A stretch of DNA of 64,000 nt, from positions 53,149-117,148 of the forward strand of contig DATLFB010000120.1 of NCBI GenBank assembly GCA_035525285.1, read 5' to 3'. The stretch comes from Thermoanaerobaculia bacterium (GTDB lineage Bacteria; Acidobacteriota; Thermoanaerobaculia; Gp7-AA8). The notes under the pieces were generated by a model. That model was not told where the DNA came from. It made no database searches and saw only the letters and a program-made list of their open reading frames with translations. Shown here in pieces: positions 2,657 through 62,534 of this stretch (position 1 is its first letter; the number at the start of each line of letters is the position of its first letter). The position numbers were made by a program, and so were the translations under genes.

Positions 2657-2665
2657 TTCAATTTC

Positions 2666-10806: not shown

Positions 10807-11669
10807 GACGGCGCAAGCCGGTCTCGCCCGAGCTCCTGAAGGCACGCCTCGACACGCTCGTCACGACGTTCGACGTCTCGACGATCGAGCCCGACCCGCT
10901 GCAGCTCGTGCTGCGCTTCCGCGATCCGCTCGATCAGGAAGTGGCTGGACTGATCGCCGCCGCATTCGCGTACGGCCGCGCGGACATCATCGTCGCGAAC
11001 ATCGGCGCGGTGCTCGCGAAGATGACGCCGTCGCCGTATCGCTATCTCGCATCGTTCGATCGTCGCGAAGCGAGTCGCCGCTTCGCGAGCTTCGCGCATC
11101 GCTTCCACAAGACTCCCGAGCTCGTCGCGTTGTTCGCCGCGCTCGCGAACGCGATCCGCGAGCACGGCTCGCTCGGCGCGCTGTTCGAAACGTGCTACGA
11201 CGCGAGTGATGACGACATCGGACCTTCGCTCGCACGATTCGTCGAGTCAGTGGCGGGCGGACGTCCCGTCCGCCATCGTGGGGCGGACGGGACGTCCGCC
11301 CTCCTTACTTCCCCCAACGACGGCTCCGCCTGCAAGCGCATGAACCTCTTCCTCCGCTGGATGGTGCGCCGCACGCCGCCCGACGTCGGCCTCTGGACCT
11401 TCGTCGATCCTGCGAAGCTCGTGATGCCGCTCGACACGCACATCCACCGCATCGCGACCTTCCTCGGCCTCAACGACCGCGCGACCGCCGACTGGAAAGC
11501 CGCCCGCGCGATCACCGACCGGCTCGCCCGCTTCGACGCCGCCGATCCCGTTCGCTACGACTTCGCCCTCTGCCGCCTCGGCATCCTCGATCTCTGCAGC
11601 CGCAAGCGGCGCAGGGAGAACTGCGACGTGTGTTTGTTGCGCGATGCGTGCAGGTTTCCGATGACCTGA
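10803..11669 (+). CDS. TIGR02757/DUF2400 family protein
   Basis: ORF-length conserved hypothetical; the TIGR02757/DUF2400 assignment rests on overall resemblance only. It carries an in-frame family A repeat at 11252-11304 (…AGGRPVRHRGADGTSALL…). Confidence 0.55.
   Translation: MRRRKPVSPELLKARLDTLVTTFDVSTIEPDPLQLVLRFRDPLDQEVAGLIAAAFAYGRADIIVANIGAVLAKMTPSPYRYLASFDRREASRRFASFAHRFHKTPELVALFAALANAIREHGSLGALFETCYDASDDDIGPSLARFVESVAGGRPVRHRGADGTSALLTSPNDGSACKRMNLFLRWMVRRTPPDVGLWTFVDPAKLVMPLDTHIHRIATFLGLNDRATADWKAARAITDRLARFDAADPVRYDFALCRLGILDLCSRKRRRENCDVCLLRDACRFPMT
11252..11304. repeat. Family A repeat in-frame inside the DUF2400 CDS
   Basis: GGCGGGCGGACGTCCCGTCCGCC-atcgtgg-GGCGGACGGGACGTCCGCCCTCC. 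Confidence 0.8.
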
Positions 11670-11726
11670 GGAGGGCGGACGTCCTCGTCCGCCCCGCACG
11701 AGAGGCGGACGAGACGTCCGCCCTCC
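11669..11726. repeat. Family A repeat immediately after the DUF2400 stop (terminator-like position)
   Basis: GGAGGGCGGACGTCCTCGTCCGCC…GGCGGACGAGACGTCCGCCCTCC. Confidence 0.8.
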
Positions 11727-11869
11727 AATTTTCTGACTGACAAATCCAAGGCACCGTAGCCAAGGCGAATCCCTTCGGAAATCCGTTGCCCGGTTCAACG
11801 TTATGGATCAACGGGTTAGCAGCCCGATACCCGCGGCACCCGCATTGAAAGCGGTCCTTCCCTCACGCC

Positions 11870-22575: not shown

Positions 22576-22965
22576 TTACTCCAGCATCGCGAGAATCGCG
22601 CGCAGTTCTTTCCGCACGTCGGCGAGTGCCTTCGTCAGGTCTGTTGCCGCGGCCGTCTCCGCGACCGGCCCGCTCAGCTCCGTCTCGAGCTTCTTTTTCG
22701 CGCCCGCGATCGTGAAGCCATCGCGATAGAGGAGCTCCTTGATGCGCAGGATCGTGTCGATCTCCTGGCGCGTGTAGAGCCGCTGGCCGCCTCCGCTTTT
22801 CCCCGGCGCGAGCTGCGGGAACTCGGTTTCCCAGTAGCGCAGCACGTAGGGCTGCACGTCCGCGAGCTTGCAGACTTCGCCGATCTTGTAGAGCTTCTCG
22901 TCCTGTGCCGCCGCGGCCACGCCTCGATTATAGGCGTGATGACAATCACCACCTCGTGTGCGCAC
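22576..22965 (-). CDS. MerR-family transcriptional regulator, divergent from hypF. The true start is probably internal at about 22920
   Basis: [27 protein letters not shown]; short coiled-coil C-terminus. Confidence 0.7.
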
Positions 22966-23005
22966 TGTGGCAGCGGCGCACCGCCGCGCCGCCTACCTTT
23001 GGCGC

Positions 23006-25351
23006 ATGCCTCTCGTTGGCCGGCACATCGAAATTCGCGGCGTCGTACAGGGCGTCGGATTTCGCCCGTGGGTCTATCAGCTCGCCACGCGTGAAGGCGT
23101 CGCAGGACGCGTGCACAACGATTCGCGCGGCGTGGTCATCGACGCGTTCGGGACCGCCGAGGCGATCGAGAACTTCACGCTCGACCTCGGCAAGAGCATG
23201 CCCGTCACCGCGCGCGTACGCGAGATCGACTGGCAGTCGATTCCGTACGAGCCCGTCACCGGCTTCGCGATCGTCGCCAGCGCGCGCGCGGGCGAGCGCA
23301 ACATCTCCATTCCGCCCGATCTCGCCACCTGTCCCGAATGCCTCGACGAGATCTTCGATCCGAACGACCGGCGTTATCTCTATCCCTTCACCAACTGCAC
23401 GCACTGCGGCCCGCGCTACACGATCGTGCGCGACGTTCCCTACGACCGTGGCAACACGACGATGGAATCGTTCGTCATGTGCGCCGGCTGCCGGCGCGAG
23501 TACCACGATCCGCTCGACCGCCGCTTTCACGCCCAGCCGAACGCGTGTCCCGCGTGCGGACCGAAGCTCACCGCGTTGCGGCCGAACGGCCGCGAGATCG
23601 TGACCCACTCGCCGATCCGCTTCGTCGCGCGCGCGCTGAAGGCCCATCTCATCGTCGCCGTGAAAGGTCTCGGCGGATTTCATCTCGCCTGCGACGCGAT
23701 GTCATCGCTCGCGATCAATCGCCTGCGCGAGCGGAAGCGCCGCGAGGCCAGGCCGCTCGCGATCATGGTGCGCGACCTCGCGCAGGCCGAGGAGCTCGCC
23801 GATCTGACGAACGCGGAGCGCGCGCTGCTCGCATCGGTCGAGCGTCCGATCGTGCTCGTGCGCCGCCGCCGTTCCACGCTTCCCGACGAGATCGCGCCCG
23901 GAAGCCCGCTGGTCGGACTCTTTCTGCCGTACACGCCGCTGCATCACATCCTGTTGCGCGAGTGCGGCATCCCGCTGGTGATGACCTCGGGCAACGTCTC
24001 CGACAACCCGATGTGCACGAGCAACGACGACGCGCTCGACTCGCTGTCGGAGATCGCCGATCTCTTCCTGATGCACGACCGAAATATCGAAACGCGCGCC
24101 GATGACTCGGTCACGCGCGTGATCGCCGGCGCGCCGATGATCATGCGCCGCGCACGCGGCTACGTCCCGCGCGGCGTGGAGTTGAAGCGCGCGTTCGCCG
24201 AGCCGGTCCTCGCCGTCGGCGCACATCTGAAGAACGCGATCTGCATCGGCGCAGGTAAGCAAGCCTTCCTCGGCCCGCACGTCGGCGATCTCTTAACGCT
24301 CGAGACGGAGGTGGCTTTCGAACAGAGCATCGAGCAGATGAAGAAGTTCGTGGGCGTCGACCCGAAAATCATCGCGCACGATCTGCATCCGGATTACGCC
24401 AGCACTCACTGGGCGGAGGACAGGCGATCTCGCCTGTCCGGACAGGCAGGATTGCCTGTCCTCCACACCATCGCCATCCAACACCACCACGCGCATGTCG
24501 TGAGCGCGATGGCCGAGCACGGCCTCGACGGCACGGCGATCGGCGTCGCGTACGACGGCACCGGCTACGGCACCGACGGCACCTCGTGGGGCGGCGAGAT
24601 CCTCATCGCGAGCTTCACCGGCTTCGAGCGCTTCGCAACCTTCCGTCCCATCGCGCTCGCCGGCGGCGATCAGGCCATCCGCCAGGTGTGGCGCATTGCG
24701 CTCGCGTTGCTCGACGACGCCTTCGACGGTACTCCGCCGCTGCATGCGCTGCCGCTCTTCCGCATGCTCGAGCGTCCGGCGATCGAATCGATCCGCCGCA
24801 TGATCGCGAACAACGTCAACACGCCCCGCGCCCGCGGCGTCGGCCGCTACTTCGACGCCCTCGGCGCAATTGGACTCGCCATGCCGGTCGCGCGCTTCGA
24901 AGGCGAAATCGCGATGGCATGGAACAACGTCGCCGACCCGCTCGAGCACGGCCGCTACGAAGTCGTCGTGCGCGACGGCGTCACGCCATGGGAGATCGAT
25001 CCGCGCCCGATGATCAAGAGCGCCGTGCTCGAGCTCCTGCGCGGCGTCTCGCTCCCGACCATCTCCGCACGCTTCCACAACACGATCGCCGCGGCGACCG
25101 TCGAAGTCGTGCGCGCGGCAACCGCCACGCACGGCAACCTCCCGATCGTCCTCACCGGCGGCTGCTTCCAGAACGCGCTGCTCGCGGAGTCGGTCCTCAA
25201 ACGTCTTCCGCGTGCGTACATCATTCGAAGCATTCCCCCAGGCGACGGTGGCATCGCGCTAGGCCAAGCCGTGATCGCCGATGCCCTTCACCGGGAAGCC
25301 GGGCAACCGGGAAACCGGGAAGCCGGGCGGGAGGTAACAACATGTGCCTAG
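23006..25351 (+). CDS. hypF: Carbamoyltransferase HypF ([NiFe]-hydrogenase maturation)
   Basis: Acylphosphatase domain (EIRGVVQGVGFRPWVY); two CxxC...CxxC zinc fingers (CPECLDE...CTHCGPRY; CAGCRRE...CPACGP); YrdC and Kae1-like domains. Carries in-frame family B (24414-24468) and family C (25289-25331) repeats. Confidence 0.9.
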   Translation: MPLVGRHIEIRGVVQGVGFRPWVYQLATREGVAGRVHNDSRGVVIDAFGTAEAIENFTLDLGKSMPVTARVREIDWQSIPYEPVTGFAIVASARAGERNISIPPDLATCPECLDEIFDPNDRRYLYPFTNCTHCGPRYTIVRDVPYDRGNTTMESFVMCAGCRREYHDPLDRRFHAQPNACPACGPKLTALRPNGREIVTHSPIRFVARALKAHLIVAVKGLGGFHLACDAMSSLAINRLRERKRREARPLAIMVRDLAQAEELADLTNAERALLASVERPIVLVRRRRSTLPDEIAPGSPLVGLFLPYTPLHHILLRECGIPLVMTSGNVSDNPMCTSNDDALDSLSEIADLFLMHDRNIETRADDSVTRVIAGAPMIMRRARGYVPRGVELKRAFAEPVLAVGAHLKNAICIGAGKQAFLGPHVGDLLTLETEVAFEQSIEQMKKFVGVDPKIIAHDLHPDYASTHWAEDRRSRLSGQAGLPVLHTIAIQHHHAHVVSAMAEHGLDGTAIGVAYDGTGYGTDGTSWGGEILIASFTGFERFATFRPIALAGGDQAIRQVWRIALALLDDAFDGTPPLHALPLFRMLERPAIESIRRMIANNVNTPRARGVGRYFDALGAIGLAMPVARFEGEIAMAWNNVADPLEHGRYEVVVRDGVTPWEIDPRPMIKSAVLELLRGVSLPTISARFHNTIAAATVEVVRAATATHGNLPIVLTGGCFQNALLAESVLKRLPRAYIIRSIPPGDGGIALGQAVIADALHREAGQPGNREAGREVTTCA
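24414..24468. repeat. Family B repeat in-frame in hypF
   Basis: Translated as EDRRSRLSGQAGLPVLH. Confidence 0.85.
25289..25331. repeat. Family C repeat (inverted runs of 9-mer GTTGCCCGG / CCGGGCAAC-like units), in-frame at the hypF 3' end
   Basis: gggaagccgggcaaccgggaaaccgggaagccgggcggg. Confidence 0.7.
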
Positions 25352-26728: not shown

Positions 26729-27810
26729 GTGCACAAACAACAGTGGAGGACAGGCGATCCCGCCTGTCCGGGCAGGCAGGATTGCCTGCCCTCCACGGCC
26801 GCGTCACCCTCAAACAGGGCGGCGGCGGCCGCGCCATGCGCGCCCTCATCGAGAAACTCTTCGTCCGCGAGTTCGCCGCCATGCCCTTCGATGGCGTCGG
26901 CCTTGCGGCGATGGACGACGGTGCCGCAATCCCGATCGGCAGCGAATGGCTCATCGTCACGACCGACTCGCACGTCATCCACCCGATCTTCTTCCCCGGC
27001 GGCGACATCGGCCGCATCTCGATCAGCGGCACGGTGAACGATCTCGCGATGATGGGCGCGACGCGCCTCCTCGGCATCACCTGCGGTCTGATCCTCGAGG
27101 AAGGCTTTCCGCTCGACCAGCTCGAAAGGGTCCAGCGCTCGCTCGTCGACACCTGCATCGAGGCCGGCACGCTCGTCATCACCGGCGACACGAAAGTCAT
27201 GGGCCGCGGCGAGATCGACGGCATCGTGATCAACACGACCGGCGTCGCGCTCGCGAAGCGCGTGGTGCGCGACAACGGACTGCGCGCCGGCGACCGCATC
27301 GTCGTCACCGGCACGATGGGCGACCACGGCCTCGCGGTCATGTCCGCGCGGCACGGGCTGCAGCTCGAAGGCGATCTCGTCTCCGACGTCGCTCCGATTC
27401 ACTCGCTCATCGCAACGGTCCTCGAGGCGATGCCGGAGGCGATCACCGCGATGAAGGACCCGACGCGCGGCGGCCTGTCCTCCGCGCTGCACGAGATGGC
27501 GCAGAAGAGCAACGTTGGCATCATCCTCGAGGAGCGCAACGTGCCCGTCACCGACGCCGTTCGCGCCGCCGGCGAGATCCTCGGCATCGATCCGCTGCAC
27601 GTGGCGAACGAAGGAAAAGCGGTGATCGGCGTGCGTGCGGAAGATGCGGAGCGCCTCGTCGCCCTGCTGCGCGCGCATCCGCTCGGCCGCGATGCGGCGA
27701 TCGCCGGCACCTGCATCGCCGAGCGGCCGGGCGGAATCATTCTCGACACGGGATTCGGACGGAGGCTGCTGGCGGAGCCGGAAGGCGAGCCGCTGCCGCG
27801 CATATGCTGA
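26725..27810 (+). CDS. hypE: Hydrogenase maturation protein HypE (carbamoyl dehydratase)
   Basis: PurM-like fold; C-terminal ...PRIC terminal cysteine. A family B repeat encodes residues about 6-23. Confidence 0.9.
   Translation: MSAQTTVEDRRSRLSGQAGLPALHGRVTLKQGGGGRAMRALIEKLFVREFAAMPFDGVGLAAMDDGAAIPIGSEWLIVTTDSHVIHPIFFPGGDIGRISISGTVNDLAMMGATRLLGITCGLILEEGFPLDQLERVQRSLVDTCIEAGTLVITGDTKVMGRGEIDGIVINTTGVALAKRVVRDNGLRAGDRIVVTGTMGDHGLAVMSARHGLQLEGDLVSDVAPIHSLIATVLEAMPEAITAMKDPTRGGLSSALHEMAQKSNVGIILEERNVPVTDAVRAAGEILGIDPLHVANEGKAVIGVRAEDAERLVALLRAHPLGRDAAIAGTCIAERPGGIILDTGFGRRLLAEPEGEPLPRIC
26743..26796. repeat. Family B repeat in-frame at the hypE N-terminus
   Basis: Translated as VEDRRSRLSGQAGLPALH. 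Confidence 0.85.
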
Positions 27811-46402: not shown

Positions 46403-46467
46403 AGTGGAGGACAGGCAATCCTGCCTGTCCTTGAAGGCCGGACAGGCAGGATTGCCTGTCCTCCACT
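46403..46467. repeat. Family B repeat (long form), intergenic between the convergent desaturase and a hypothetical gene
   Basis: Only intergenic copy of family B; terminator-like position. Confidence 0.85.
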
Positions 46468-46491
46468 ACACCATGCTGCCGGCCGTGCCGG

Positions 46492-47061
46492 CTAGCGGCT
46501 CTTCAACTTCTTCAGCGCGCGTTGTGCGTCGCGGCCCTGTCGCGGGCAGACGCAGCGCTGATCCCACACCGATCGATAAATCTCGACGGCGGCGCCGGTC
46601 TCACCGGCGTCCGCCTTCTCGCGCGCGTCGTCGAGCCGCTCGTCCGCCTCGCTCATCCGGCGATCGAGCTCCACGCGCACCATCTCCTCCACCTCGGCGA
46701 TCCTTCGCGCATCGCCGCGCGCGAGCACGGTTCCATCGGCATCCGCCAGAATCGCCGCCGGCAACTCTTCGTCGACGGCGAGCTGGTCGAGCGTCGCCCG
46801 GTCGTCCGAGCGGACCACGCGCATCGCCACGCATCGCGAGGAAAAGAACGTCAACTCGTCCGAGGTGAGCAGGTCCGAGCGGCGAAGCTCCTCCGGCGAG
46901 CCCGGGACCCAGAAAAGCACCAGCGGAGCGCGGAGGTTCTCGCCCGGCTGGATGATTTTCCACGGGACGAGCGAGACGTGAGGGGCATCGGCCGGCTGGG
47001 CGTCCAGGCCGGTCATGAGGAAGGCGACCCCGGCGACAAATAGCGCCGCGCGGTGATTCAT
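46492..47061 (-). CDS. Secreted hypothetical protein (possible thioredoxin-like fold)
   Basis: Signal-peptide-like MNHRAALFVAGVAFLMTG. The upstream part of the ORF to 47181 is probably not translated. Confidence 0.4.
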   Translation of the reverse strand: MNHRAALFVAGVAFLMTGLDAQPADAPHVSLVPWKIIQPGENLRAPLVLFWVPGSPEELRRSDLLTSDELTFFSSRCVAMRVVRSDDRATLDQLAVDEELPAAILADADGTVLARGDARRIAEVEEMVRVELDRRMSEADERLDDAREKADAGETGAAVEIYRSVWDQRCVCPRQGRDAQRALKKLKSR

Positions 47062-47167
47062 CGGGCGATCTGGCTCGGAAGTGGCCGGATTATACGCCCG
47101 GCCAGAAACACGCTCGTCCGGCCCTCGCCAGCGTAGAATCGGGTGAGGTTCGCCAGTCCATATATAC

Positions 47168-49786
47168 ATGGCCGCCCTCATGGTCGAAGAAGCCGTCCAG
47201 CAGACCTTCGGTCGCTACGTGATCCTCGGCGCCATCGGATCGGGTGGGATGGGCGAGGTGTACGCGGCGCGCGACCCGCAGCTGGGACGGCGCGTGGCGA
47301 TCAAGAAACTGCCGCTGCGCCTGACCGGCGATCGCGACACGCTCGCGCGCTTCACGCATGAGGCACGCTCGGCGTCGGCGCTCAATCATCCGAACATCGT
47401 CACCATCCACGAAGTCGGCGCCGACGAAGGCGTGCCGTACATCGTGATGGAGTACATCGACGGCACCGACCTGCGCACGCTGATCAACGAGGGTCCGCTG
47501 CCCATCCGCAAAGTGCTCGACATCGCGGCGCAGATCGCGGACGGCCTCGCCGCCGCGCACGAGCGCGGGATCGTGCATCGCGATCTGAAGCCCGAGAACA
47601 TCATGCTCACGCGCGACGGCTTCGTGAAGGTTCTCGACTTCGGCCTCGCGAAGATGGTCGCGACCTCGGCCGATGCCGAGAACACGCTGGAGCTCGATCT
47701 CCCCGGCACGAATCCGGGAACGATTCTCGGCACGGTGGGCTACATGTCGCCGGAGCAGGCGATGGGCAAGCGCCTCGACTTCCGCTCCGATCAGTTCGCG
47801 CTCGGCGCGATCATCCACGAGCTCGTGAGCAGCAAGCCGGCGTTCGAGGCGGAGAACGCGATCGATACGCTGTCGGCGATTCTCCATCACGTGCCGGCGC
47901 CGGTCGGCCACTTCAATTCGCGTGCGCCCGTGCAGCTTTCGGACATCGTGCAGCGCCTGCTCGACAAGTCGCCCGAGGGGCGGTACGTGTCGACGCGCGA
48001 TCTCGCGCGCGAGATCCGCCTGCTGCGCGACCGGGTGGTCGCGGAGGAGAGCGGGTATCACTCGAGCGCGGAGAAAGTGGCCGCGCCGCGCCCGCGCGCC
48101 ACGCCTGCGATCGTCGCCGCCATCGCGCTCGCCCTCTTTCTCGTTGGCGTGTTCATCGTGACGGGCCGCCGCGAACCGTCGTCGCCGCAGCAGACTGCCG
48201 CCGTCGCCGCGCCGAAGAAATATCTCGCCGTCCTCCGCTTCCAGGATCTCAGCGGAGAGCCGAACGGCCAGCTCGTGGTGGACGGGTTCGCGGAGACGCT
48301 GACCGCGCGCCTGGCGCACTTCCCGACAGTCCAGGTGATGCGCCCGCAAACCGCGGCGCCCGAACCGACAACCACCGACCCCCGCAAGTTCGCCCGCGAC
48401 CTCGGCGCGAACCTGGTCCTGACCGGCTCGATGATGCGCGCCGGCGACCGCATCCGCGTGACGTACACGGTGGTCGAGACCCAGCCCAACGGCCGCGAAT
48501 GGCGCGACCTGGTCGAAGGAAATGTGGCGGATCTCTTCGCGGTGCAGGACGACGTCGCCGAGAGCGTGGCCCGGAATCTCGATCTCGGCGCTACCCCCGC
48601 CCGCCCGCCGCTCGATCCCGCCGTGTCGCAGCGGCGCTACCTCGAAGCGCTCGGACATCTGCGGCGGTATGACAGCGAGCAGTCGCTCGACAGCGCGATC
48701 GGGATTTTGAAGGGGCTGGGGGAGTCACCCTCGGTGCAGGCGGTTCTGGCGAGGGGGTACTTATATAAGTTCCAGATTACTCGCGAACCTGAGCTTGCTG
48801 CGGCAGCGAATACGGCAGCGGAAAGTGCTCTCCAGGCCGACCCTCAGAGCATCGACGTCAACATTACGCTTGGTGAACTGCGACGCCGCACGGGCCGATA
48901 CAAGGAGGCAGTCGACGCGTTCGTCCGGGTACTTTCGCAGCACCCAAACAACGCAGATGCGGTCCTGGGTCTAGCTGAAACGCATAAAGCGGCTGGCGAT
49001 GTGGCCAACGCAGAACAAGCGTACCGTCGCGCTATCGGACTGCAACCTAACTCGTGGAGTGCGTACAACAAACTCGGCGCGTTTTACTTCAACCAAGGTC
49101 GCTTTTCCGCGAGCATTCCACTTTTCCAGAAGGTCGTCACTCTCGTGCCCGACAACGAGCGCGGTTACAACAACCTGGGTGGCGCCTACCAGCGTTTAGG
49201 TCGCTACGAGGAGGCCGTTCACGTATTTAGCCAGTCAATCGCGCGCGCGCCCTCCGGACAGGGATACACAAATCTCGGAACGTCCTACTACTTCGCAGGT
49301 CGGTATAGAGAAGCCGCCGACGCATTTGAAAAGGCAATCGAACTCACGCCACACAAGTTTCTGTATTGGCGGAATCTCGGTGATGCTTACCGCTGGATTC
49401 CTGGCCAGGAGGTAAGCGCCAGACGTGCATACGAGCGAGCCATCGCACTGTGCGACGAAGCGATCCGCCTGAACCCAAAAGAAGCGCGCGCATACATGTC
49501 TCGCGCAAGCGCTCTCGCTAAGCTTGGCCGCACGCGAGAGGCACGTACGGCGATTCTCCACGCACTCGAGCTCGAACCGCAGTACGCTGCGAACGCTTAT
49601 GAAGCAGCGGTTGTCGCAAACATCGCCGGCTCCGAGGAAGACGCTACGGCACGCATCGAACAAGCGCTCCGTCTCGGATATCACGCCGATCACATCCTGC
49701 GAGACCCCGAGTTTGCCAATCTCAGAAAAAGCGGTAGGCTGCAAGCGATAATTGCGGGGTTCCGGTCCAAAACCTCGCCTCGGTAA
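47168..49786 (+). CDS. Serine/threonine protein kinase with one TM segment and a C-terminal TPR-repeat domain
   Basis: GSGGMGEVY...VAIK...[11 protein letters not shown]...DFGLAK...GTVGYMSPE; [19 protein letters not shown]; at least 7 TPR units. The 3' 1 kb has markedly lower GC. Confidence 0.85.
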
Positions 49787-49805
49787 ATAGAGAGGAGGTC
49801 TAGCC

Positions 49806-50105
49806 ATGGCTAATGAGCACCCAGATAAGGTCGTTCGCGTTACCCTTAATGACAAGGGGCTTGCCGTTCCTGACAGCGACCCCGTCAGAGTCAAGAAAGA
49901 CACGCAGAAAGTGAAGTGGGGCGCAGAGTTTCCATTCTCCATCGAGATTTCTGGCGCATCATCGATGCGGTCCGGCGGAAACGACCAGGAATTTTCACAC
50001 GTCGTCAAAAGCGGAACTTTCGATCGTCCGGCCGGGACACGTATCAAGTATTCGATTACGGCAAACGGTCAGACGAACGATCCAGATCTCGAAATCGAAC
50101 CGTGA
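49806..50105 (+). CDS. Hypothetical small protein within the low-GC island
   Basis: Strong SD GAGGAGG 7 nt upstream of ATG; no recognised domain. Confidence 0.4.
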   Translation: MANEHPDKVVRVTLNDKGLAVPDSDPVRVKKDTQKVKWGAEFPFSIEISGASSMRSGGNDQEFSHVVKSGTFDRPAGTRIKYSITANGQTNDPDLEIEP

Positions 50106-50443
50106 CGAGCGTTCGTCTCTCCCCTAACGATTTCCTCCACCGCCTTCCCGCCCCCGACGGCAAGCGTTTCGTGCTCGCGTTCGAGCACGGGACGCTCGCC
50201 GTGGAGCTGTACGCGCCGCGCGGGAGCGATCCGCAGACGCCGCACACGCGCGATGAAGCCTACGTCGTCGTCAGCGGGAGCGGCACGTTCGTGCATGGCG
50301 AGCGGCGCGAGGCGTTCGCGGCGGGGGACTTCCTCTTCGCCGCCGCCGGCGTCGTGCATCGCTTCGAAGACTTCGCCGACGATCTCGCGGTCTGGGTGAT
50401 TTTCTACGGGCCGGAGGGTGGAGAGCGGATCTACCGATCGTAG
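50102..50443 (+). CDS. Cupin-domain protein
   Basis: GTG start overlapping the upstream stop; cupin-like ...HTRDEAYVVVSGSGTFVHGERREAFAAGDFLFAAAGVVHRF. Confidence 0.5.
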   Translation: MTSVRLSPNDFLHRLPAPDGKRFVLAFEHGTLAVELYAPRGSDPQTPHTRDEAYVVVSGSGTFVHGERREAFAAGDFLFAAAGVVHRFEDFADDLAVWVIFYGPEGGERIYRS

Positions 50444-50601
50444 AGTTTTTGTTGTCAAGCCCTCGGACGAGTTTTCAACATCTGCGGAAATCTCGCTTCC
50501 ACTGCGATCATGGCGCTGCACGGCGAAGGCGAGGCTGTGAAAAGCACTGCGGACGACAGGGCGGCAGCGAACACCATCCGTAGAATGCTCGCCTCTCTCG
50601 A

Positions 50602-51999
50602 ATGAGTGTTGCCCAACTCGATGTTGCGCTCGACCGGCCTATGCCGCAGAGCCCTGATGCGGAGCGCGCCGTGCTCGGCTCCATCATCATCAACAACCAC
50701 GCCTTCTACCGCGTCATCGGCACCATCAACACCGAAGACTTCTTCAAGGACTCGCACCGCACCATCTTCGCGACGATGCGGCGGATGGCGGAGCGCAGCC
50801 AGGAGATCGAAGCGCTCACGCTGAAGGAAGAGCTGGCGAAGAACGCCCAGCTCGAGCAGGTCGGCGGCGTCGCCTACCTCTCCTCGCTGCTCGACGCCGT
50901 TCCCGACGTCGCGAACGTCGAGCGCTACGCCCGAATCGTCAAGGAGAAGTCGACTTTGCGCCGGCTGATCGTGATGGGCAACAGCGTCATGCGCGCCGCG
51001 CTCGAGGCGCCGAGCGAGCCGGACGAAGTGCTCAACATCGCCGAGAAATCGCTGTACGACATCGCCGAGGGCGTCACCGACAAGGGATTCGTCGCGCTCG
51101 AGCGCATCACCCGCAACAACATGACCGCCATCGAGCAGATCCACAGCGCCGGCAAGCTGCTCACCGGCATCCCCACCGGCTACGACCGCTTCAACGAGTT
51201 CACCTCGGGCTTCCAGCTGCAGGACCTGATCATCCTCGCGGCGAGACCCTCGATGGGGAAGACGAGCCTTATGATGAACATCGCCGAGTCCATCGCCATC
51301 CCCGGCAAGGACGGCGCGCCGCGCACGGGCGCACAGCGGCTTTACGCGGTCGGCGTGTTCTCGCTCGAAATGTCCAAAGAGCAGATCGGGCTGCGCATCC
51401 TTTCCTCCGAGTCGGGCGTGTCGAATCACCTCATCCGCTCGGGCATGCTCTCCGAGCGCAACTGGCGGGATCTCGCCGACGCGGCGGCGCGCCTGGCGAA
51501 GGGAAAGATCTACGTCGATGACTCGCCGGGCATGGACCCGCTCGAGATGCGCGCGAAGGCGCGGCGGCTGAAGATGGAGGTTGGGCTCGACATGGTCATG
51601 GTCGACTACCTCCAGCTCATGGCCCTGAAGGGCAAGGTCGAGTCGCGGCAGCAGGAGATCTCGCAGATCTCGCGCGGGCTGAAGGCGATCGCGAAAGAGC
51701 TGAATCTGCCGCTGCTCGCCCTCTCCCAGCTCTCGCGCCGTCCCGAGCAGCGCACCGGAGATCACCGCCCGCAGCTCGCCGATCTCCGCGAGTCGGGCGC
51801 GATCGAGCAGGATGCGGATCTCGTCGCGTTCATCTACCGCGACGAGGTGTACAACCGCGACACCGAGGAGAAGGGGATCGCGGAGATCATCATCGCCAAG
51901 CAGCGCAACGGCCCCATCGGCGACTTCAAGCTCGTCTTCCGCAACGACATCACCAAGTTCTTCAACTACGAGCCGCAGCCGGACTTCATCCCGCAGTAA
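50602..51999 (+). CDS. dnaB: Replicative DNA helicase DnaB (no intein)
   Basis: N-terminal domain ERAVLGSIIIN; Walker A ARPSMGKTS; RecA-like motifs QLSRRPEQR, DADLVAFIYRDEVY. Confidence 0.9.
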   Translation: MSVAQLDVALDRPMPQSPDAERAVLGSIIINNHAFYRVIGTINTEDFFKDSHRTIFATMRRMAERSQEIEALTLKEELAKNAQLEQVGGVAYLSSLLDAVPDVANVERYARIVKEKSTLRRLIVMGNSVMRAALEAPSEPDEVLNIAEKSLYDIAEGVTDKGFVALERITRNNMTAIEQIHSAGKLLTGIPTGYDRFNEFTSGFQLQDLIILAARPSMGKTSLMMNIAESIAIPGKDGAPRTGAQRLYAVGVFSLEMSKEQIGLRILSSESGVSNHLIRSGMLSERNWRDLADAAARLAKGKIYVDDSPGMDPLEMRAKARRLKMEVGLDMVMVDYLQLMALKGKVESRQQEISQISRGLKAIAKELNLPLLALSQLSRRPEQRTGDHRPQLADLRESGAIEQDADLVAFIYRDEVYNRDTEEKGIAEIIIAKQRNGPIGDFKLVFRNDITKFFNYEPQPDFIPQ

Positions 52000-57124: not shown

Positions 57125-57889
57125 CTAGAGCGTGTAATTCTTCTCGAGCAGCACCCGCGCGCGACGGTCACGCAAGTTCCGGATCTGCGACTCGATATCG
57201 CGCTCGTACGGAAGCTTGCGGTGGCTCGCGTACACCGGCGCGTCGACCAGGATCTTTTTCAGTTCCTCGCCGAAGGTGTTCGGCGAGAGATGCGCGGTCT
57301 CGTCGGCGAGCTGCTGCTGATCGTTCGGGAACGACGCCTCGGTGATGATCGCGACCACGTTCTCGGCCTTGTTCGTCCGCTTCCAGATGTCGTGCGTCGG
57401 GCCGGTGTCGCCGGTGAAGACGATCGTCTGGCCGTTCATCTCGAGGATCACGCCCGCGGCGGGAATCTGATGATCGACGTTGACCGCGGTGAGGCCGACG
57501 TCATTGAACACGATCCGTTTGCCCGGCGTGAGCGCGCGATATTGCACGGCGGGCTTGCCGGTGAGCGGTGAGGTGATCTCGGAGAAGTCGGGCCAGGCGA
57601 CACCGTTGAAGAGATCGCGCACGAGGATGTCCATCACCTCTTTCGAGGCGAAGAGCGTCAGCGGTGCGGCGCTCTGGCTGAATCGATTGTGGATCAGGTG
57701 CGGCAGATCGCGGGTGTGATCGGCGTGCGGATGGGTGATGAAGACGGCCTGGATGCGCGCCTGCTGCGTGAAGGAGAGCTTCGAGGTGAGAGTCCCGGCA
57801 TCCACGGCGAGCCAGTCATCGATGACATAGCCCGTGAGGTTGTGTTCCGCATCCGACGCCCCGTAGGCGCCGAGGACCTTCAGCCGCAT
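57125..57889 (-). CDS. MBL-fold metallo-hydrolase (class II cyclic-nucleotide phosphodiesterase-like)
   Basis: ITHPHADHTRDLPHL His motif; beta-lactamase-fold pattern. Confidence 0.65.
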   Translation of the reverse strand: MRLKVLGAYGASDAEHNLTGYVIDDWLAVDAGTLTSKLSFTQQARIQAVFITHPHADHTRDLPHLIHNRFSQSAAPLTLFASKEVMDILVRDLFNGVAWPDFSEITSPLTGKPAVQYRALTPGKRIVFNDVGLTAVNVDHQIPAAGVILEMNGQTIVFTGDTGPTHDIWKRTNKAENVVAIITEASFPNDQQQLADETAHLSPNTFGEELKKILVDAPVYASHRKLPYERDIESQIRNLRDRRARVLLEKNYTL

Positions 57890-57986
57890 CTCCCGTCCTT
57901 CACTTCCACCTTCTGCTCAATGGGGGACTAAGCCACTATTCTTGCAGCCGTCACATGGGTTGTCCAGCAGAGTGACGCCGCTCACT

Positions 57987-60900
57987 ATGGCGCGAAGCTC
58001 AAAAACTGACCCTGCCCTCGAGCCGTTCCATCCTGCCGTGCAGGAATGGTTTGCGGCCTCGTTCGCCGCGCCGACGCGCGCGCAGACGCTCGGCTGGCCG
58101 GCCATCGCCCGAGGCGACTGGACGCTCATCAGCGCCCCCACCGGCAGCGGCAAAACACTGACCGCATTTCTGTGGGCACTCGATCGATTGATGTTCGCGA
58201 AGCCTGCCCTGAGCGGAGCCGAAGGGCGCCCGCCGAAAGAGCGGCGCTGCCGGGTGATGTACGTCTCGCCGCTGAAAGCGCTCGCAGTCGATGTCGAACG
58301 CAATCTGCGCGCGCCGCTCGCGGGAATCGCGAACGTGGCGCGGGCGCGCGGCGACGACTTCACGATTCCGCAGATCGCGATCCGCACCGGCGACACGCCG
58401 CAATCGGAGCGCGCGCGTTTTCTCCGCAATCCGGCGGACATCCTGATCACCACCCCCGAGTCGCTCTATCTGATGCTGACCTCGAACGCGCGCGAGATGC
58501 TGCGCGGTATCGAGACGTTCATCGTCGACGAGATCCACGCGCTCGTGCCGAACAAGCGAGGGGCGCATATGGCGTTGTCGCTGGAGCGGCTCGCGGTGCT
58601 CTGCGATTCGACGCCGCAACGGATTGGGCTTTCGGCGACGCAGAGGCCGCTCGAGGAGGTTGCGCATTTTCTGGGGGGTTGCCCGGTTGCCCGGTTGCCC
58701 AGTCTCCCAGTGAAGCCTACCGGGCAACCGGGCAACCGGGCAACCGGGCAACCAGAAATCCACGACGAATTCACCGACCAAACCAAGGCGCGATTTCGTC
58801 CGATCACGATCATCGACACCGGCGAGAAAAAAAAGTTCACCCTCAAAGTCGAGGTCCCCGTCGAAGACATGGCAAAGCTCGCGGAACGGGAGATTGCGAG
58901 CGGACCGGCGTCGGCGGGGCCGCGGTCGCCGTCGATCTGGCCGGCGATTCATCCGCGGCTGCTGGAGCTGATCCGCGCGCATACGTCGACGCTCATCTTC
59001 GTCAACTCGCGGCGGCTCGCGGAGCGGCTCGCCGCTGCGATCAACGAGCTCGCTGGCGAGACGCTCGTGCAGTCGCATCACGGCTCGATCGCGCGCGCGC
59101 AACGCGTGGAAATCGAGGACGCGCTGAAATCGGGCAAGCTCCCCGCGCTCGTCGCGACGTCATCGCTCGAGCTGGGCATCGACATGGGCGCGATCGATCT
59201 CGTCATTCAGATCGAGGCGCCGCCCTCGATCGCCTCGGGCATGCAGCGCATCGGACGCGCGAGCCACCAGGTCGGCGCGGAGTCGAGCGGGATTATCTTC
59301 CCGAAGTTTCGTGGAGATCTCGTCGCCTGCGCGGCGGTCGCCGAGGCGATGCACGAGGGGAAGATCGAGCCGACGCGCTACCCGCGCAATCCGCTCGACG
59401 TGCTCGCGCAGCAGATCGTGGCGATGGTCGCCGTCGACGCGTGGCACGTCGATGAGCTCTTCGCGACGATTCGCGGCGCCGCGCCGTTCGCGGAGCTGAG
59501 CCGCGGCGTGTTCGAGGGCGTGCTGGACATGCTCTCCGGCATGTATCCGTCCGACGAGTTCGCGGAGCTGCGCCCGCGTCTCACGTGGGATCGCGTCGCG
59601 AACACGATCATCGCGCGCGAAGGAGCGAAACGCGTCGCCATCACCAACGGCGGCACGATCCCCGATCGCGGGTTGTACGGCGTCTTCCTCGCCGGCGCGG
59701 AGAAGAACCAGTCGGCGCGCGTCGGCGAGCTCGATGAGGAGATGGTTTTCGAGGCCGCGGTCGGCGAGACGTTCATCCTCGGCGCGTCGACGTGGCGCAT
59801 CGAGGAGATCACGCTCGACAAAGTGATCGTCACGCCCGCGCCGGGCCAGCCGGGAAAGATGCCGTTCTGGAAAGCGGATGCCGCCGAGCGCACGGTTCCT
59901 TTCGGGGAGACGATCGGCCGCCTCGTGCGCGAGATTCGCGAGGCGAAGCCCGCGGATGCGATTCGCCGTTTGATCAAACAGCACGATCTCGACAAGCTCG
60001 CCGCGGAGAATCTGCTGCAGTACCTGAACGATCAGGCCGAGGCGACCGGGGCGGTGCCGGATGACCGCACGGTGGTCATCGAGCGCGTCCTCGATGAGCT
60101 GGGCGACTGGCGCGTCTGCGTGCTCACGCCGTTCGGCGGAAAGATTCACGCGCCGTGGGCGATGGCCGTGAGCGCGAAAGTGCGAGCGGAGCTGGCGATC
60201 GACGTGGAGTCGATGTGGAGCGACGACGGATTCATCGTGCGTTTTCCCGAGACGGATCGCCCGCCCGCGGCGGAGCTCGTGCTGCCCGATCCCGACGAGA
60301 TCGAGCCGCTGCTCCTGCGGCAGCTCGGCGCGAGCTCGATGTTCGCGGCGAAGTTCCGCGAGGCGGCCGCACGCGCGCTGCTCCTGCCGCGACGTCGCGT
60401 GCAGGGACGCACGCCGCTGTGGCAGCAGCGCAAGCGCGCGTACGACCTGCTACAGGTCGCGTCGCGCTTCGGCTCGTTCCCGATCATCCTCGAGGCGTAT
60501 CGCGAGTGCCTGCGCGATGTGTTCGACGTTCCCGCGCTGGTCGACATCACGCGCCGCATCCAGCGCCGCGCGATTCGCGTCGTCACCGCCGACACGGAGA
60601 AGCCGTCGCCCTTCGCAGCCTCGGTGCTCTTCCGCTACGCGGCGAACTTTCTCTACGACGGCGACGCGCCGCTCGCGGAGCGCCGCGCGCAGGCGCTGGC
60701 GATCGATCAGTCGCAGCTCCGCGAGCTCCTCGGCGAGCCGGAGCTGCGCGAGCTGCTCGATCCCGAGGCGCTCGCGCAGACCGAGCTCGAACTGCAGCAT
60801 CTCGATGAGCGGCACCAGGCACGCTCGGCGGATGCGATTCACGATCTGCTGCTGCGCCTCGGCGATCTGACAGCGAGCGAGATCGCGGCGCGAAGCGAAG

Positions 60901-62534
60901 TGGAGGACAGGCGATCTCGCCTGTCCGGACAGGCAGGATTGCCTGTCCTCCACGATCTCATCACGCAGCGGCGCGTGCTCGAGGTCACGATCGCGCGCGA
61001 GAAGCGCTTCATCGCCATCGAGGATGCGTCACGCTACCGCGATGCCCTCGGCACGCCGATTCCGCACGGCGTCGCGGAGCGGTATCAGCAGCCGGTGCAG
61101 GATCCGGTCGGCGATCTCGTGCTGCGCTTCGCTCGGACGCACGGCCCGTTCACGCCGCACGACGTCGCGCAGCGCTACGGCCTCGGCATCGCGGTGATCG
61201 CGGCCGCTCTCGAGCGCTTTGTCGAGCGTGGGCGGCTCATCGAAGGGGAGTTTCGTCCGGGGGGAACGCAGCGCGAGTGGTGCGAGGCGGACGTGTTGCG
61301 CACGGTGCGCAGACGCTCACTCGCGAAGCTGCGCAAGGAGGCGGAGCCTGTCGATCCGCCCGTGCTGGCGCGCCTGTTCGCGCACTGGCAGCACGCCGTG
61401 CGCAAACGGCGCGGGCTCGACGCGCTGCTCGAAGTGATCGAGTCGCTGCAGGGATTTCCGATGGCCGCGTCGATTTTCGAGAGCGAGATCCTCGCCGCGC
61501 GAGTCGAAGACTACAGGCCGTCGGATCTCGACACGCTCAGCGCGGCGGGCGAGATCGTGTGGGCGGGCGTCGAGCCGCTCGGGGAGCACGATGGGCGGAT
61601 CGCGTTGTATCTCACTGATCACTTGTCGCTGCTTGCCCCTCACCCTGGCCCTCTCCCCGCCGAGGCGGGGAGAGGGGACTCGGTTGTCGAATATCTGCGG
61701 GCGCATGGTGCGTCGTTTTTTGCGCAGATGCAGGCGGAGCTCGGCGGGTTTCCCGGCGCGCTCGTCGACGCGCTGTGGGAGCTTGTGTGGAAGGGCGCGA
61801 TCACGAACGACACGTTCCACGCGCTGCGCGCGTTCACGCGGCCGAAGCAGCCGCGCGCGAGCGGCTATCGCTCGCGGCGCGTCGCCCCCGCATCGACGCA
61901 GGGGCGGTGGTCGCTGGTCCCGCCGCCGGCGGGCAGCGACACGCAACGATCGAATGCGCTCGCGCAGCAGTTGCTCGCGCGCTACGGGATCGTGACGCGC
62001 GAGGCGGCCGGGTTCTCGGCCGTCTATCCGGTGCTAAAGGCGATGGAGGAAGCGGGCCGCATCCGCCGCGGCTACTTCATCGCCGGCCTCGGCGCGACGC
62101 AGTTCGCGAGCGCGGGTGCGGTCGATCTTCTGCGTTCGCTGCGCGACGAGCCCGAACAGGCGGAGACGCTGCTGCTCGCCGCGACCGATTCGGCGAATCC
62201 GTATGGCGCGATCGTGAAGTGGCCGGAATCGCAATGGACGCTGTCGCGCAGCGTCGGAGCGCATGTGATTCTTGTAAACGGCCTGATGGCCTGCTACCTC
62301 ACGCGCGGCGAGAAACAGCTCTTCGTCTTTCTGCCGGAAGACGAGCCGTTGCGATCGATGGTCGCGCGCGAGATCGCAAAGGCGCTGGCGTCGCTCGTTC
62401 CGGAGAAGCGCCGCGCGCTGCTCATCAGCGAGATCAACGACGAGCCGGCGTCGCGCAGCGCACTCGGGCCGTTTCTCGCCGAGGAGGGATTCGCGGCGAC
62501 GGCGATGGGTTATCAGCTGCGAGCGAAGAAATGA
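57987..62534 (+). CDS. lhr: Large ATP-dependent helicase Lhr (DEAD/DEAH superfamily 2, Lhr-core plus C-terminal extension)
   Basis: Walker A APTGSGKT; DEIH box FIVDEIHAL; helicase C motifs; about 1500 aa. Three different repeat families are in-frame: C at 58677-58756, B at 60900-60953, E at 61636-61680. Confidence 0.85.
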   Translation: MARSSKTDPALEPFHPAVQEWFAASFAAPTRAQTLGWPAIARGDWTLISAPTGSGKTLTAFLWALDRLMFAKPALSGAEGRPPKERRCRVMYVSPLKALAVDVERNLRAPLAGIANVARARGDDFTIPQIAIRTGDTPQSERARFLRNPADILITTPESLYLMLTSNAREMLRGIETFIVDEIHALVPNKRGAHMALSLERLAVLCDSTPQRIGLSATQRPLEEVAHFLGGCPVARLPSLPVKPTGQPGNRATGQPEIHDEFTDQTKARFRPITIIDTGEKKKFTLKVEVPVEDMAKLAEREIASGPASAGPRSPSIWPAIHPRLLELIRAHTSTLIFVNSRRLAERLAAAINELAGETLVQSHHGSIARAQRVEIEDALKSGKLPALVATSSLELGIDMGAIDLVIQIEAPPSIASGMQRIGRASHQVGAESSGIIFPKFRGDLVACAAVAEAMHEGKIEPTRYPRNPLDVLAQQIVAMVAVDAWHVDELFATIRGAAPFAELSRGVFEGVLDMLSGMYPSDEFAELRPRLTWDRVANTIIAREGAKRVAITNGGTIPDRGLYGVFLAGAEKNQSARVGELDEEMVFEAAVGETFILGASTWRIEEITLDKVIVTPAPGQPGKMPFWKADAAERTVPFGETIGRLVREIREAKPADAIRRLIKQHDLDKLAAENLLQYLNDQAEATGAVPDDRTVVIERVLDELGDWRVCVLTPFGGKIHAPWAMAVSAKVRAELAIDVESMWSDDGFIVRFPETDRPPAAELVLPDPDEIEPLLLRQLGASSMFAAKFREAAARALLLPRRRVQGRTPLWQQRKRAYDLLQVASRFGSFPIILEAYRECLRDVFDVPALVDITRRIQRRAIRVVTADTEKPSPFAASVLFRYAANFLYDGDAPLAERRAQALAIDQSQLRELLGEPELRELLDPEALAQTELELQHLDERHQARSADAIHDLLLRLGDLTASEIAARSEVEDRRSRLSGQAGLPVLHDLITQRRVLEVTIAREKRFIAIEDASRYRDALGTPIPHGVAERYQQPVQDPVGDLVLRFARTHGPFTPHDVAQRYGLGIAVIAAALERFVERGRLIEGEFRPGGTQREWCEADVLRTVRRRSLAKLRKEAEPVDPPVLARLFAHWQHAVRKRRGLDALLEVIESLQGFPMAASIFESEILAARVEDYRPSDLDTLSAAGEIVWAGVEPLGEHDGRIALYLTDHLSLLAPHPGPLPAEAGRGDSVVEYLRAHGASFFAQMQAELGGFPGALVDALWELVWKGAITNDTFHALRAFTRPKQPRASGYRSRRVAPASTQGRWSLVPPPAGSDTQRSNALAQQLLARYGIVTREAAGFSAVYPVLKAMEEAGRIRRGYFIAGLGATQFASAGAVDLLRSLRDEPEQAETLLLAATDSANPYGAIVKWPESQWTLSRSVGAHVILVNGLMACYLTRGEKQLFVFLPEDEPLRSMVAREIAKALASLVPEKRRALLISEINDEPASRSALGPFLAEEGFAATAMGYQLRAKK
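58677..58756. repeat. Family C repeat, full inverted pair, in-frame in lhr
   Basis: (GTTGCCCGG)x3-ccagtctcccagtgaagcctac-(CGGGCAACC)x4. Confidence 0.8.
60900..60953. repeat. Family B repeat in-frame in lhr
   Basis: Translated as VEDRRSRLSGQAGLPVLH. Confidence 0.85.
61636..61680. repeat. Family E repeat in-frame in lhr
   Basis: Encodes …APHPGPLPAEAGRGDS…. Confidence 0.75.

Follow-up and report, generated by a model that had tools for sequence, protein, structure and literature searches.

Why should the base composition of a bacterial gene change abruptly partway along its reading frame? The question is raised by a locus in a 64-kb stretch of a Thermoanaerobaculia metagenome-assembled genome (MAG), the whole of which (64,000 nucleotides (nt)) is referred to here as the window. 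Within it, a Hanks-type Ser/Thr kinase gene becomes AT-richer in its 3′ part, which encodes a tail of tetratricopeptide repeats (TPRs), and the small open reading frame (ORF) that follows shares this composition. Comparison with related loci suggests an answer that we hold to be quite probable: the island would be one allele of a polymorphic cassette, composed of TPR tail and small gene, that is exchanged by homologous recombination within an otherwise conserved, syntenic Thermoanaerobaculia locus. In the following, W denotes the locus and allele of the window, L-numbers denote related loci on contigs and P-numbers proteins; the head of the kinase comprises residues 1–504, the tail residues ~505–872. 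GC3 is the GC content at third codon positions, and aa stands for amino acids. The features of the locus, in window coordinates, are:

47168–49786, plus strand: Hanks-type Ser/Thr kinase gene, 872 codons; kinase domain, one transmembrane helix, conserved ectodomain and TPR tail
47168–48679, plus strand: conserved head, with kinase domain, transmembrane helix and ~160-aa ectodomain (residues ~345–504); GC3 0.88, tracks the genome background
48680–49786, plus strand: variable TPR tail, residues ~505–872, 5′ part of the exchangeable cassette; GC3 step at 48761
49792–49798, plus strand: Shine-Dalgarno sequence GAGGAGG of the small ORF, 7 nt ahead of its ATG, as read from the sequence
49806–50105, plus strand: small putative partner gene, 99 aa, 3′ part of the cassette; predicted immunoglobulin (Ig)-like beta-sandwich, GC3 0.58
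50102–50443, plus strand: Cupin_2 gene, 3′ flank or anchor of the cassette; GTG start overlaps the TGA of the small ORF, host-like GC3 of 0.85
50602–51999, plus strand: dnaB, conserved downstream flank; 96% aa identity to L029, the nearest relative of W
NCBI proteins of the locus: P0121 and P0151, locus tag VNA69_20950, Thermoanaerobaculia MAG

A preliminary description of this DNA had reported a drop in GC over ~1.35 kb from about 48750, with A/T-rich third codon positions, and the measurements bear this out. The segment 48750–50105 has a GC content of 0.566 (66.1% for the window as a whole), and the minimum of all 1350-nt windows, likewise 0.566, falls at 48751, 4.7 standard deviations below the mean (0.661, standard deviation 0.020). 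Within the kinase frame (47168–49786), GC3 decreases from 0.88 over codons 1–527 to 0.61 over codons 528–872, while GC1 and GC2 remain nearly flat. The maximum-likelihood change point of GC3 lies at codon 531 (nt 48761; log-likelihood ratio 45), and a fit of plain GC with two change points returns 48755 and 50140. That the change begins inside the kinase ORF and runs on through the small ORF, that the latter is preceded by a GAGGAGG Shine-Dalgarno sequence, and that host composition prevails both upstream and in the cupin gene had all been described correctly; the step does not, however, come right after the transmembrane and juxtamembrane region, as had been stated, but only after the ~160-aa ectodomain. 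GC3 of the remaining genes in the window ranges from 0.80 to 0.91. The shift itself is a flattening toward A- and T-ending codons alike and affects all codon families. The second-lowest GC stretch of the window (~11550–11900; 0.615 in 1350-nt windows) comprises an intergenic region and the start of a PDZ histidine kinase gene.

At fourfold-degenerate sites, identity was 0.29–0.37 in the tail against an expectation of 0.25–0.26, and 0.51–0.67 in the head against 0.41–0.43; synonymous sites are hence near saturation in the tail and unsaturated in the head, with faster synonymous turnover in the former. Several simple causes of the low GC3 could be dismissed. The amino acid composition of TPRs is not responsible, as the codon preferences of the head predict a GC3 of 0.87 for the tail and 0.61 is observed; moreover, a second TPR protein encoded in the window has a GC3 of 0.81. 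An effect of position along the operon, or polarity, is contradicted by the translationally coupled cupin gene downstream, with its GC3 of 0.85. Constraint from an antisense gene (a 270-aa ORF at 49235–50047, minus strand) was rejected because the synonymous sites of the tail are saturated and unconstrained and the translation is junk-like. An ancient transfer with incomplete amelioration is unnecessary as an explanation and fits poorly with the near-saturated synonymous sites of the tail.

A further candidate is import from outside. The preliminary description had interpreted the island as a horizontally acquired 3′ cassette with the small ORF as its cargo, and a single recent acquisition from a lower-GC foreign organism, replacing the sensor module and carrying a cargo gene, would be in line with the sharp compositional step at both ends and with a cassette replacement that, as detailed below, did happen in the lineage of W or of L029. 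However, TPR tail and small ORF are present at every orthologous locus. Synteny extends over more than 25 Thermoanaerobaculia loci, drawn from metagenomes as well as species-representative MAGs, the order being (urocanase), small TPR protein, fatty-acid desaturase, hypothetical gene (minus strand), kinase-TPR, small ORF, cupin (in some), rotamase (in some), dnaB and nfeD. Rather than cargo, the small ORF belongs to a conserved family with a fixed place after the kinase at all of these loci, and a segment found in all relatives does not behave as a mobile-element island. All alleles are low in GC3 whatever their background: across the comparison set of orthologues, tail GC3 was below the expectation from head codon usage in 21/21 cases (deficit 0.03–0.27), the deficit of the small ORF followed that of the tail across lineages (r = 0.81), and in the nine loci for which change points were placed, these fell at W-residues 501–556. 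The same dip is seen in the distant L026 (49% tail identity). As GC3 is reduced in every orthologue, low GC alone is no sign of a foreign donor.

Nor did searching tail, small ORF and head separately reveal the discordant taxonomic affinities that had been anticipated: although most matches were unnamed, the named best matches of all three came from Thermoanaerobaculia or Acidobacteriota, at similar identity and without discordance among them. Recombination scars were equally absent, with no integrase, flanking repeat or other scar found at the cassette boundaries, no tRNA in 40–56 kb of the window, no direct repeats of ≥20 nt in 48600–50200 and none of note in 46500–51500; Rfam family searches and promoter and terminator scans returned nothing relevant in the island or marking its boundaries. 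We therefore regard a foreign acquisition as highly improbable. What survives of the original interpretation is a replaceable unit with two boundaries, visible in the pairs L030/L031 and W/L029, and what does not is its low-GC foreign donor, given 21/21 low orthologues; the donors are homologous alleles from within Thermoanaerobaculia.

The evidence for replacement comes from close relatives. In species-level comparisons that did not include L029, head and tail were each ~73% identical to every relative, and an intermediate model, in which a conserved region of relaxed GC3 is inherited purely vertically, was overturned by L029 and by the decoupling of heads from tails. L029 was recovered by a head-only search; a tail-only protein search returned mostly fragments and missed full-length orthologues, and its best match (73%) was not the nearest neighbour. 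Between W and L029, aa identity amounts to 86% for the desaturase, 96% for DnaB and 84–88% for the kinase head, and to 64% for the tail (residues 601–872, the range underlying the tail figures for this pair) and 50% for the small ORF. DNA identity is 0.82–0.95 up to ~48500, 0.52–0.70 over 48700–50600 and 0.90 from the start of dnaB, and synonymous identity falls from ~0.77 to ~0.4 near codon 450. The sisterhood of the two loci received bootstrap support of 100% from head residues 200–450 and of 3% from tail residues 601–872.

The second pair, L030 and L031, consists of contigs from samples of one soil metagenome project. Outside the cassette they are 97–100% identical over ~10 kb (98.8–100% for the proteins of flanking genes). 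Their kinases share 99.6% of residues 1–488 and 69% of residues 489–853, and their small ORFs are 75% identical. DNA identity drops from 0.99–1.00 to 0.58–0.73 at nt ~3392 of the kinase (W-residue ~505) and is restored no more than ~100 nt into the cupin gene, with the 3′ crossover at the stop codon of the small ORF. Both alleles are low in GC3 (0.36–0.62 in the tail), and a third is present in L007, a related strain. The small ORF lies inside both resolved replacement tracts, that of L030/L031 and that of W/L029. Crossovers are located in the conserved head on the 5′ side and in the cupin/dnaB flank on the 3′ side.

The same pattern was apparent in a survey of 112 full-length orthologues, in which head and tail identity correlated only with r = 0.35. 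Fourteen pairs with heads at least 95% identical had tails at 57–85%, and among pairs with heads at least 90% identical, 42/72 had tails below 75%. Five tail classes occurred within one head cluster (≥90% identity), and one tail class spanned two head clusters. Clustering at 80% identity divided 113 sequences into 66 clusters. In seven pairs, breakpoints were located at W-residues ~500–600, that is, where the TPR region begins and GC3 of W drops; the GC3 step marks the junction of conserved and variable sequence. Alleles are 30–45% apart in DNA even where the flanks of the strains match at 97–100%, and whole cassettes are hence exchanged by homologous recombination. Read from these comparisons, the segment is NEVERTHELESS a recombination cassette; the pool of its alleles shows the same depth of divergence as the entire gene family and is reshuffled between backgrounds.

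Could the 3′ part of the operon instead have evolved in situ, by vertical descent with a regional change in mutation or selection that drives it faster toward AT? In its favour, the GC3 drop carries phylogenetic signal, the clades L005/L007/L009 and L015/L025 are well supported in head tree and tail tree alike, and synonymous turnover is faster in the tail. Point mutation, however, cannot yield 30–40% DNA divergence, saturated synonymous sites included, between near-identical flanks, and neither the bootstrap conflict over W and L029 (100% vs. 3%) nor the occurrence of one tail class in different head clusters fits descent without exchange, which makes this explanation very unlikely.

An assembly artefact joining the conserved head of one organism to the tail of another deserves mention, as every sequence used is of metagenomic origin and chimeras typically form in conserved kinase domains. 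For W, however, Logan contig L001 (SRR8556377) matches 47732–51190 at 100% and spans both boundaries, and since the junctions at both ends are thereby reproduced identically in an independent assembly, a chimera in W was rejected. For L030 and L031, each contig would have to switch twice, with flanks matching at 97–100% on both sides; decoupling was also seen on long MAG contigs, up to the megabase scale (1.2 Mb, P0170), and the GC3 step is present at every locus. The chance that an artefact underlies the pattern appears close to negligible.

How might such a pool of alleles persist, and why should it be AT-rich? We propose that old alleles are kept diverse by diversifying or negative-frequency-dependent selection acting on an exposed TPR ectodomain. 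The small protein would be a functionally linked partner, with the cassette determining which ligand or partner the kinase recognizes and the catalytic head held constant; a partner role is suggested by the small ORF diverging more than any other gene of the locus (mean pairwise identity 0.56), lying within both replacement tracts and co-varying with the tail in its GC3 deficit. The weak GC-ward force that holds genome GC3 at ~0.88, be it codon selection and/or GC-biased gene conversion, may be less effective in the cassette. Many deeply diverged alleles would be unable to recombine internally, so that AT-biased mutation could win. GC-biased gene conversion has reportedly been proposed for bacteria. 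Fourfold-degenerate sites are near random in the tail and still correlated between lineages in the head, which suggests a weaker GC-ward constraint in the tail. Under this mechanism, the low GC3 would be a consequence of the polymorphism.

Several observations weigh against the exchange of a functionally coupled cassette as pictured here. The W allele is without a close match elsewhere, the closest tail among the orthologues being 0.77 identical; for L029 the maximum over all 112 is 0.66. Either W or L029 replaced its cassette after their split, and since the L029 tail is farther than the W tail from all of the orthologues, L029 seems the likelier recipient. Tail and small ORF are not always swapped jointly, as L015 and L025 have tails 61% and small ORFs 84% identical, and over the 22 loci compared, tail and small-ORF distances correlate at only 0.39. 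Entropy per site is merely moderately higher in the TPR tail (1.03) than in the head (0.58–0.82), and the variability of the tail is not clearly concentrated on the concave, binding face of the TPRs. A small protein lacking an export signal and a tail predicted to lie outside do not obviously permit direct binding. Finally, all relatives of W are metagenome contigs or MAGs.

The domain architecture is that of a membrane-anchored receptor kinase with a predicted extracytoplasmic tail. Pfam assigned Pkinase to residues 17–274 (E = 5.8e-48) and TPR families to residues ~547–806; the Hanks-type assignment is further supported by a catalytic motif and an MSPE motif visible in the translation. A single hydrophobic segment (residues 309–335) forms the putative transmembrane helix, and the TPR register comprises eight units at residues 561–839 plus a TPR end domain. 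In this topology, the TPR tail is predicted to lie outside the membrane. As for the gene start, the NCBI model of the kinase (P0151, 845 aa) begins at 47249, 27 codons after the first ATG, and would cut the glycine-rich loop; orthologues begin at the MVEE site (window position 47180). In the more distant relatives L026 (2827–5341) and L028 (3157–5323), kinase and TPR parts were called as two ORFs overlapping by 11 and 20 nt, respectively; the division, whether genuine or due to a frameshift error, lies upstream of the GC3 step.

The small protein has so far escaped annotation, with no match to its ORF in Pfam, NCBIfam or PADLOC. Its family, represented by 30 aligned proteins, has 16 invariant columns and a C-terminal motif, KYSITANGxTNDPDLxIxP; products are 93–100 aa long, and neither a signal peptide nor a hydrophobic segment was predicted. 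An exhaustive profile search of 1.84 billion proteins recovered only 47 representative clusters, alongside weak, uninformative matches to large repeat proteins of mixed kinds (Sushi, FctA, Big). The AlphaFold (AF2) model is all-beta, with a predicted local distance difference test score (pLDDT) of 85.7, and a fold search with it yielded generic Ig-like neighbours alone (template-modelling scores 0.4–0.56). The gap between the kinase stop and the small ORF is 17–25 nt at nearly all orthologous loci (112 nt in L009). Remote relatives were also noticed in other contexts: those of L023 and L024 (5986–6288) are 100 aa long with an acidic C-terminal extension (37–40% identity), and a 174-aa relative in L027 (1676–2200) has an N-terminal hydrophobic segment and a C-terminal ...DPDEEIIINP motif. 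The latter sits downstream of another TPR-tailed protein, itself with reduced GC3.

The cupin gene, at which the cassette ends, is present at only some orthologous loci (L003, L007, L015 and L030 vs. L002, L005, L009 and L029). Where present, its start overlaps or abuts the stop of the small ORF; the overlap is 4 nt long (GTGA) in W, L003, L007 and L030. L031 is altered at this junction, and its cupin ORF was called 24 codons shorter.

These properties bear on what drives the exchange. With the same cassette dynamics, the advantage might lie in escape from phages, bacteriocins or other antagonists that use the TPR ectodomain, the small gene merely hitch-hiking. The predicted extracytoplasmic position of the tail and the absence of an export signal from the small protein would suit such a scenario, as would the uncoupling of the two in L015/L025 and the sheer number of alleles (66 clusters at 80% among 113 sequences), which do not form few discrete groups. 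Hitch-hiking, on the other hand, is hard to reconcile with a small ORF that is itself the most divergent gene (0.56) and whose GC3 drop tracks that of the tail (r = 0.81), with its strictly conserved position and spacing, or with a 3′ crossover at its stop codon in L030/L031. We consider antagonist escape possible but somewhat doubtful, and retain a linked partner within the recombining cassette as the preferred interpretation. A more specific scenario would have a eukaryote-type Ser/Thr kinase serve pherotype-like signalling or kin recognition in Acidobacteriota. Cells would release the small beta-sandwich protein by a route that needs no classical signal peptide, and the TPR ectodomain, encoded directly ahead of it, would bind it in an allele-specific manner. 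This strikes us as rather unlikely; if true, co-occurring soil strains with different cassettes would 'hear' their own kind only, and the dozens of old, low-GC3 alleles would be the footprint of negative frequency-dependent selection.

Intragenic mosaics as such are already known for the histidine kinases of peptide quorum sensing and for toxin tips. In the agr variable region and in comQXP, the receptor part of a kinase and the adjacent small gene or genes are hypervariable, unlinked from their flanks and moved by recombination (PMC8768832; PMC6334282). The locus described here resembles Staphylococcus agr (agrB-agrD and the sensor part of agrC) in that variation takes in one part of a receptor kinase together with the small gene next to it, and the rest tracks the genome: a hypervariable sensor part plus small gene, unlinked from the flanks, was found in L030/L031, in W/L029 and across the 112 orthologues. 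The differences are nonetheless considerable. The agr receptor is a histidine kinase, whereas ours is a Hanks-type Ser/Thr kinase with a TPR ectodomain, in which only Pkinase and TPR domains were detected; agr encodes a peptide precursor and the processing gene agrB, whereas here a folded beta-sandwich of ~95 aa is predicted and no AgrB-like gene accompanies it; and agr has four groups, compared with dozens of alleles here. No exported, processed peptide with a dedicated enzyme was found at the locus, the neighbours being the desaturase, hypothetical, cupin and dnaB genes.

In Bacillus subtilis, comQ, comX and the 5′ sensor part of comP are poorly conserved and the remainder is conserved, and pherotypes of different type share one cm3 of soil (PMC6334282). 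The L030 and L031 alleles likewise occur within one soil metagenome project; in our case, however, the kinase gene varies in its 3′ part, its product belongs to another kinase class and there is no pair of isoprenyl transferase and pheromone.

The closest compositional parallel is provided by Rhs and CdiA-CT proteins. Rhs genes consist of a GC-rich core, followed in the same ORF by an AT-rich variable extension and then by small downstream ORFs (PMC7259588), and a conserved N-terminal part, a variable, AT-richer C-terminal part and a small ORF are what is observed here. Yet the tips of those proteins are unrelated toxin domains, whereas the tails compared here are homologous TPR arrays, 55–85% identical, and the kinase head is a signalling enzyme rather than a delivery scaffold; a Pfam search of the locus detected no YD, FHA, toxin or secretion-system domains. 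Capsule and O-antigen loci, too, are deeply diverged low-GC cassettes swapped by recombination in conserved flanks, but they are multi-gene biosynthetic clusters, unlike a 1.4-kb cassette that begins inside a gene. As the defining features of agr, com and Rhs systems are lacking, we file the locus as a recombination-shuffled polymorphic specificity cassette and not as a member of any of these. In the literature, we found no report of such an intragenic mosaic for Hanks-type kinases with TPR ectodomains, nor any paper dealing with such kinases in Thermoanaerobaculia.

Targeted diversification and defence functions were considered as well. Within ~2 kb of the segment, no template or variable repeat of a diversity-generating retroelement (DGR) was found, the window not having been screened for reverse transcriptase; the divergence, moreover, spans 1.4 kb and all bases, unlike the adenine-specific pattern of DGRs. 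PADLOC matches of the kinase to PD-T4-6, MAD6 and MkoA cover residues ~10–435, nearly all ending by ~340, and hence essentially the kinase domain, and the small ORF, the cupin gene and the hypothetical gene were without a PADLOC match.

An anomaly that resembles routine horizontal transfer thus appears to mark a hyper-polymorphic specificity module in a class of soil bacteria that is abundant but uncultured. There, strains of one soil project that are almost clonal differ in their sensor tails as much as distant species do. The population-genomic signal is strong and, for a Hanks-type kinase, was not to be expected. A dip in GC3 within a gene does not require a foreign donor; where an allele pool is balanced, it may simply persist as one of its properties, and the locus lends itself to asking why polymorphic cassettes of long standing are richer in AT than the genomes that carry them. 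It might take part in recognition among strains or in receptor arms races of Acidobacteriota, and could be used as a marker for strain typing.

Elsewhere in the window, we noticed a family of near-perfect palindromic elements with the core GGACAGGCAGGATTGCCTGTCC in inverted pairs, present in six copies per 64 kb vs. zero expected by chance and in none of 31 related loci. The copies are located at:

2815–2870
14258–14301
24418–24461
26748–26791
46404–46468
60905–60948

The copy at 46404–46468 forms a predicted 28-bp stem (−71 kcal/mol, z = −9.7) and corresponds to a ~100-nt insertion relative to L029. Four copies lie in frame within intact ORFs, namely those of a peptidase (2657–5662), a histidine kinase (11849–14686), HypF (22943–25351) and an Lhr helicase (57867–62534), to whose products they would add peptides such as EDRRSRLSGQAGLPVLH. 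By analogy, these elements recall the palindromic elements of Rickettsia.

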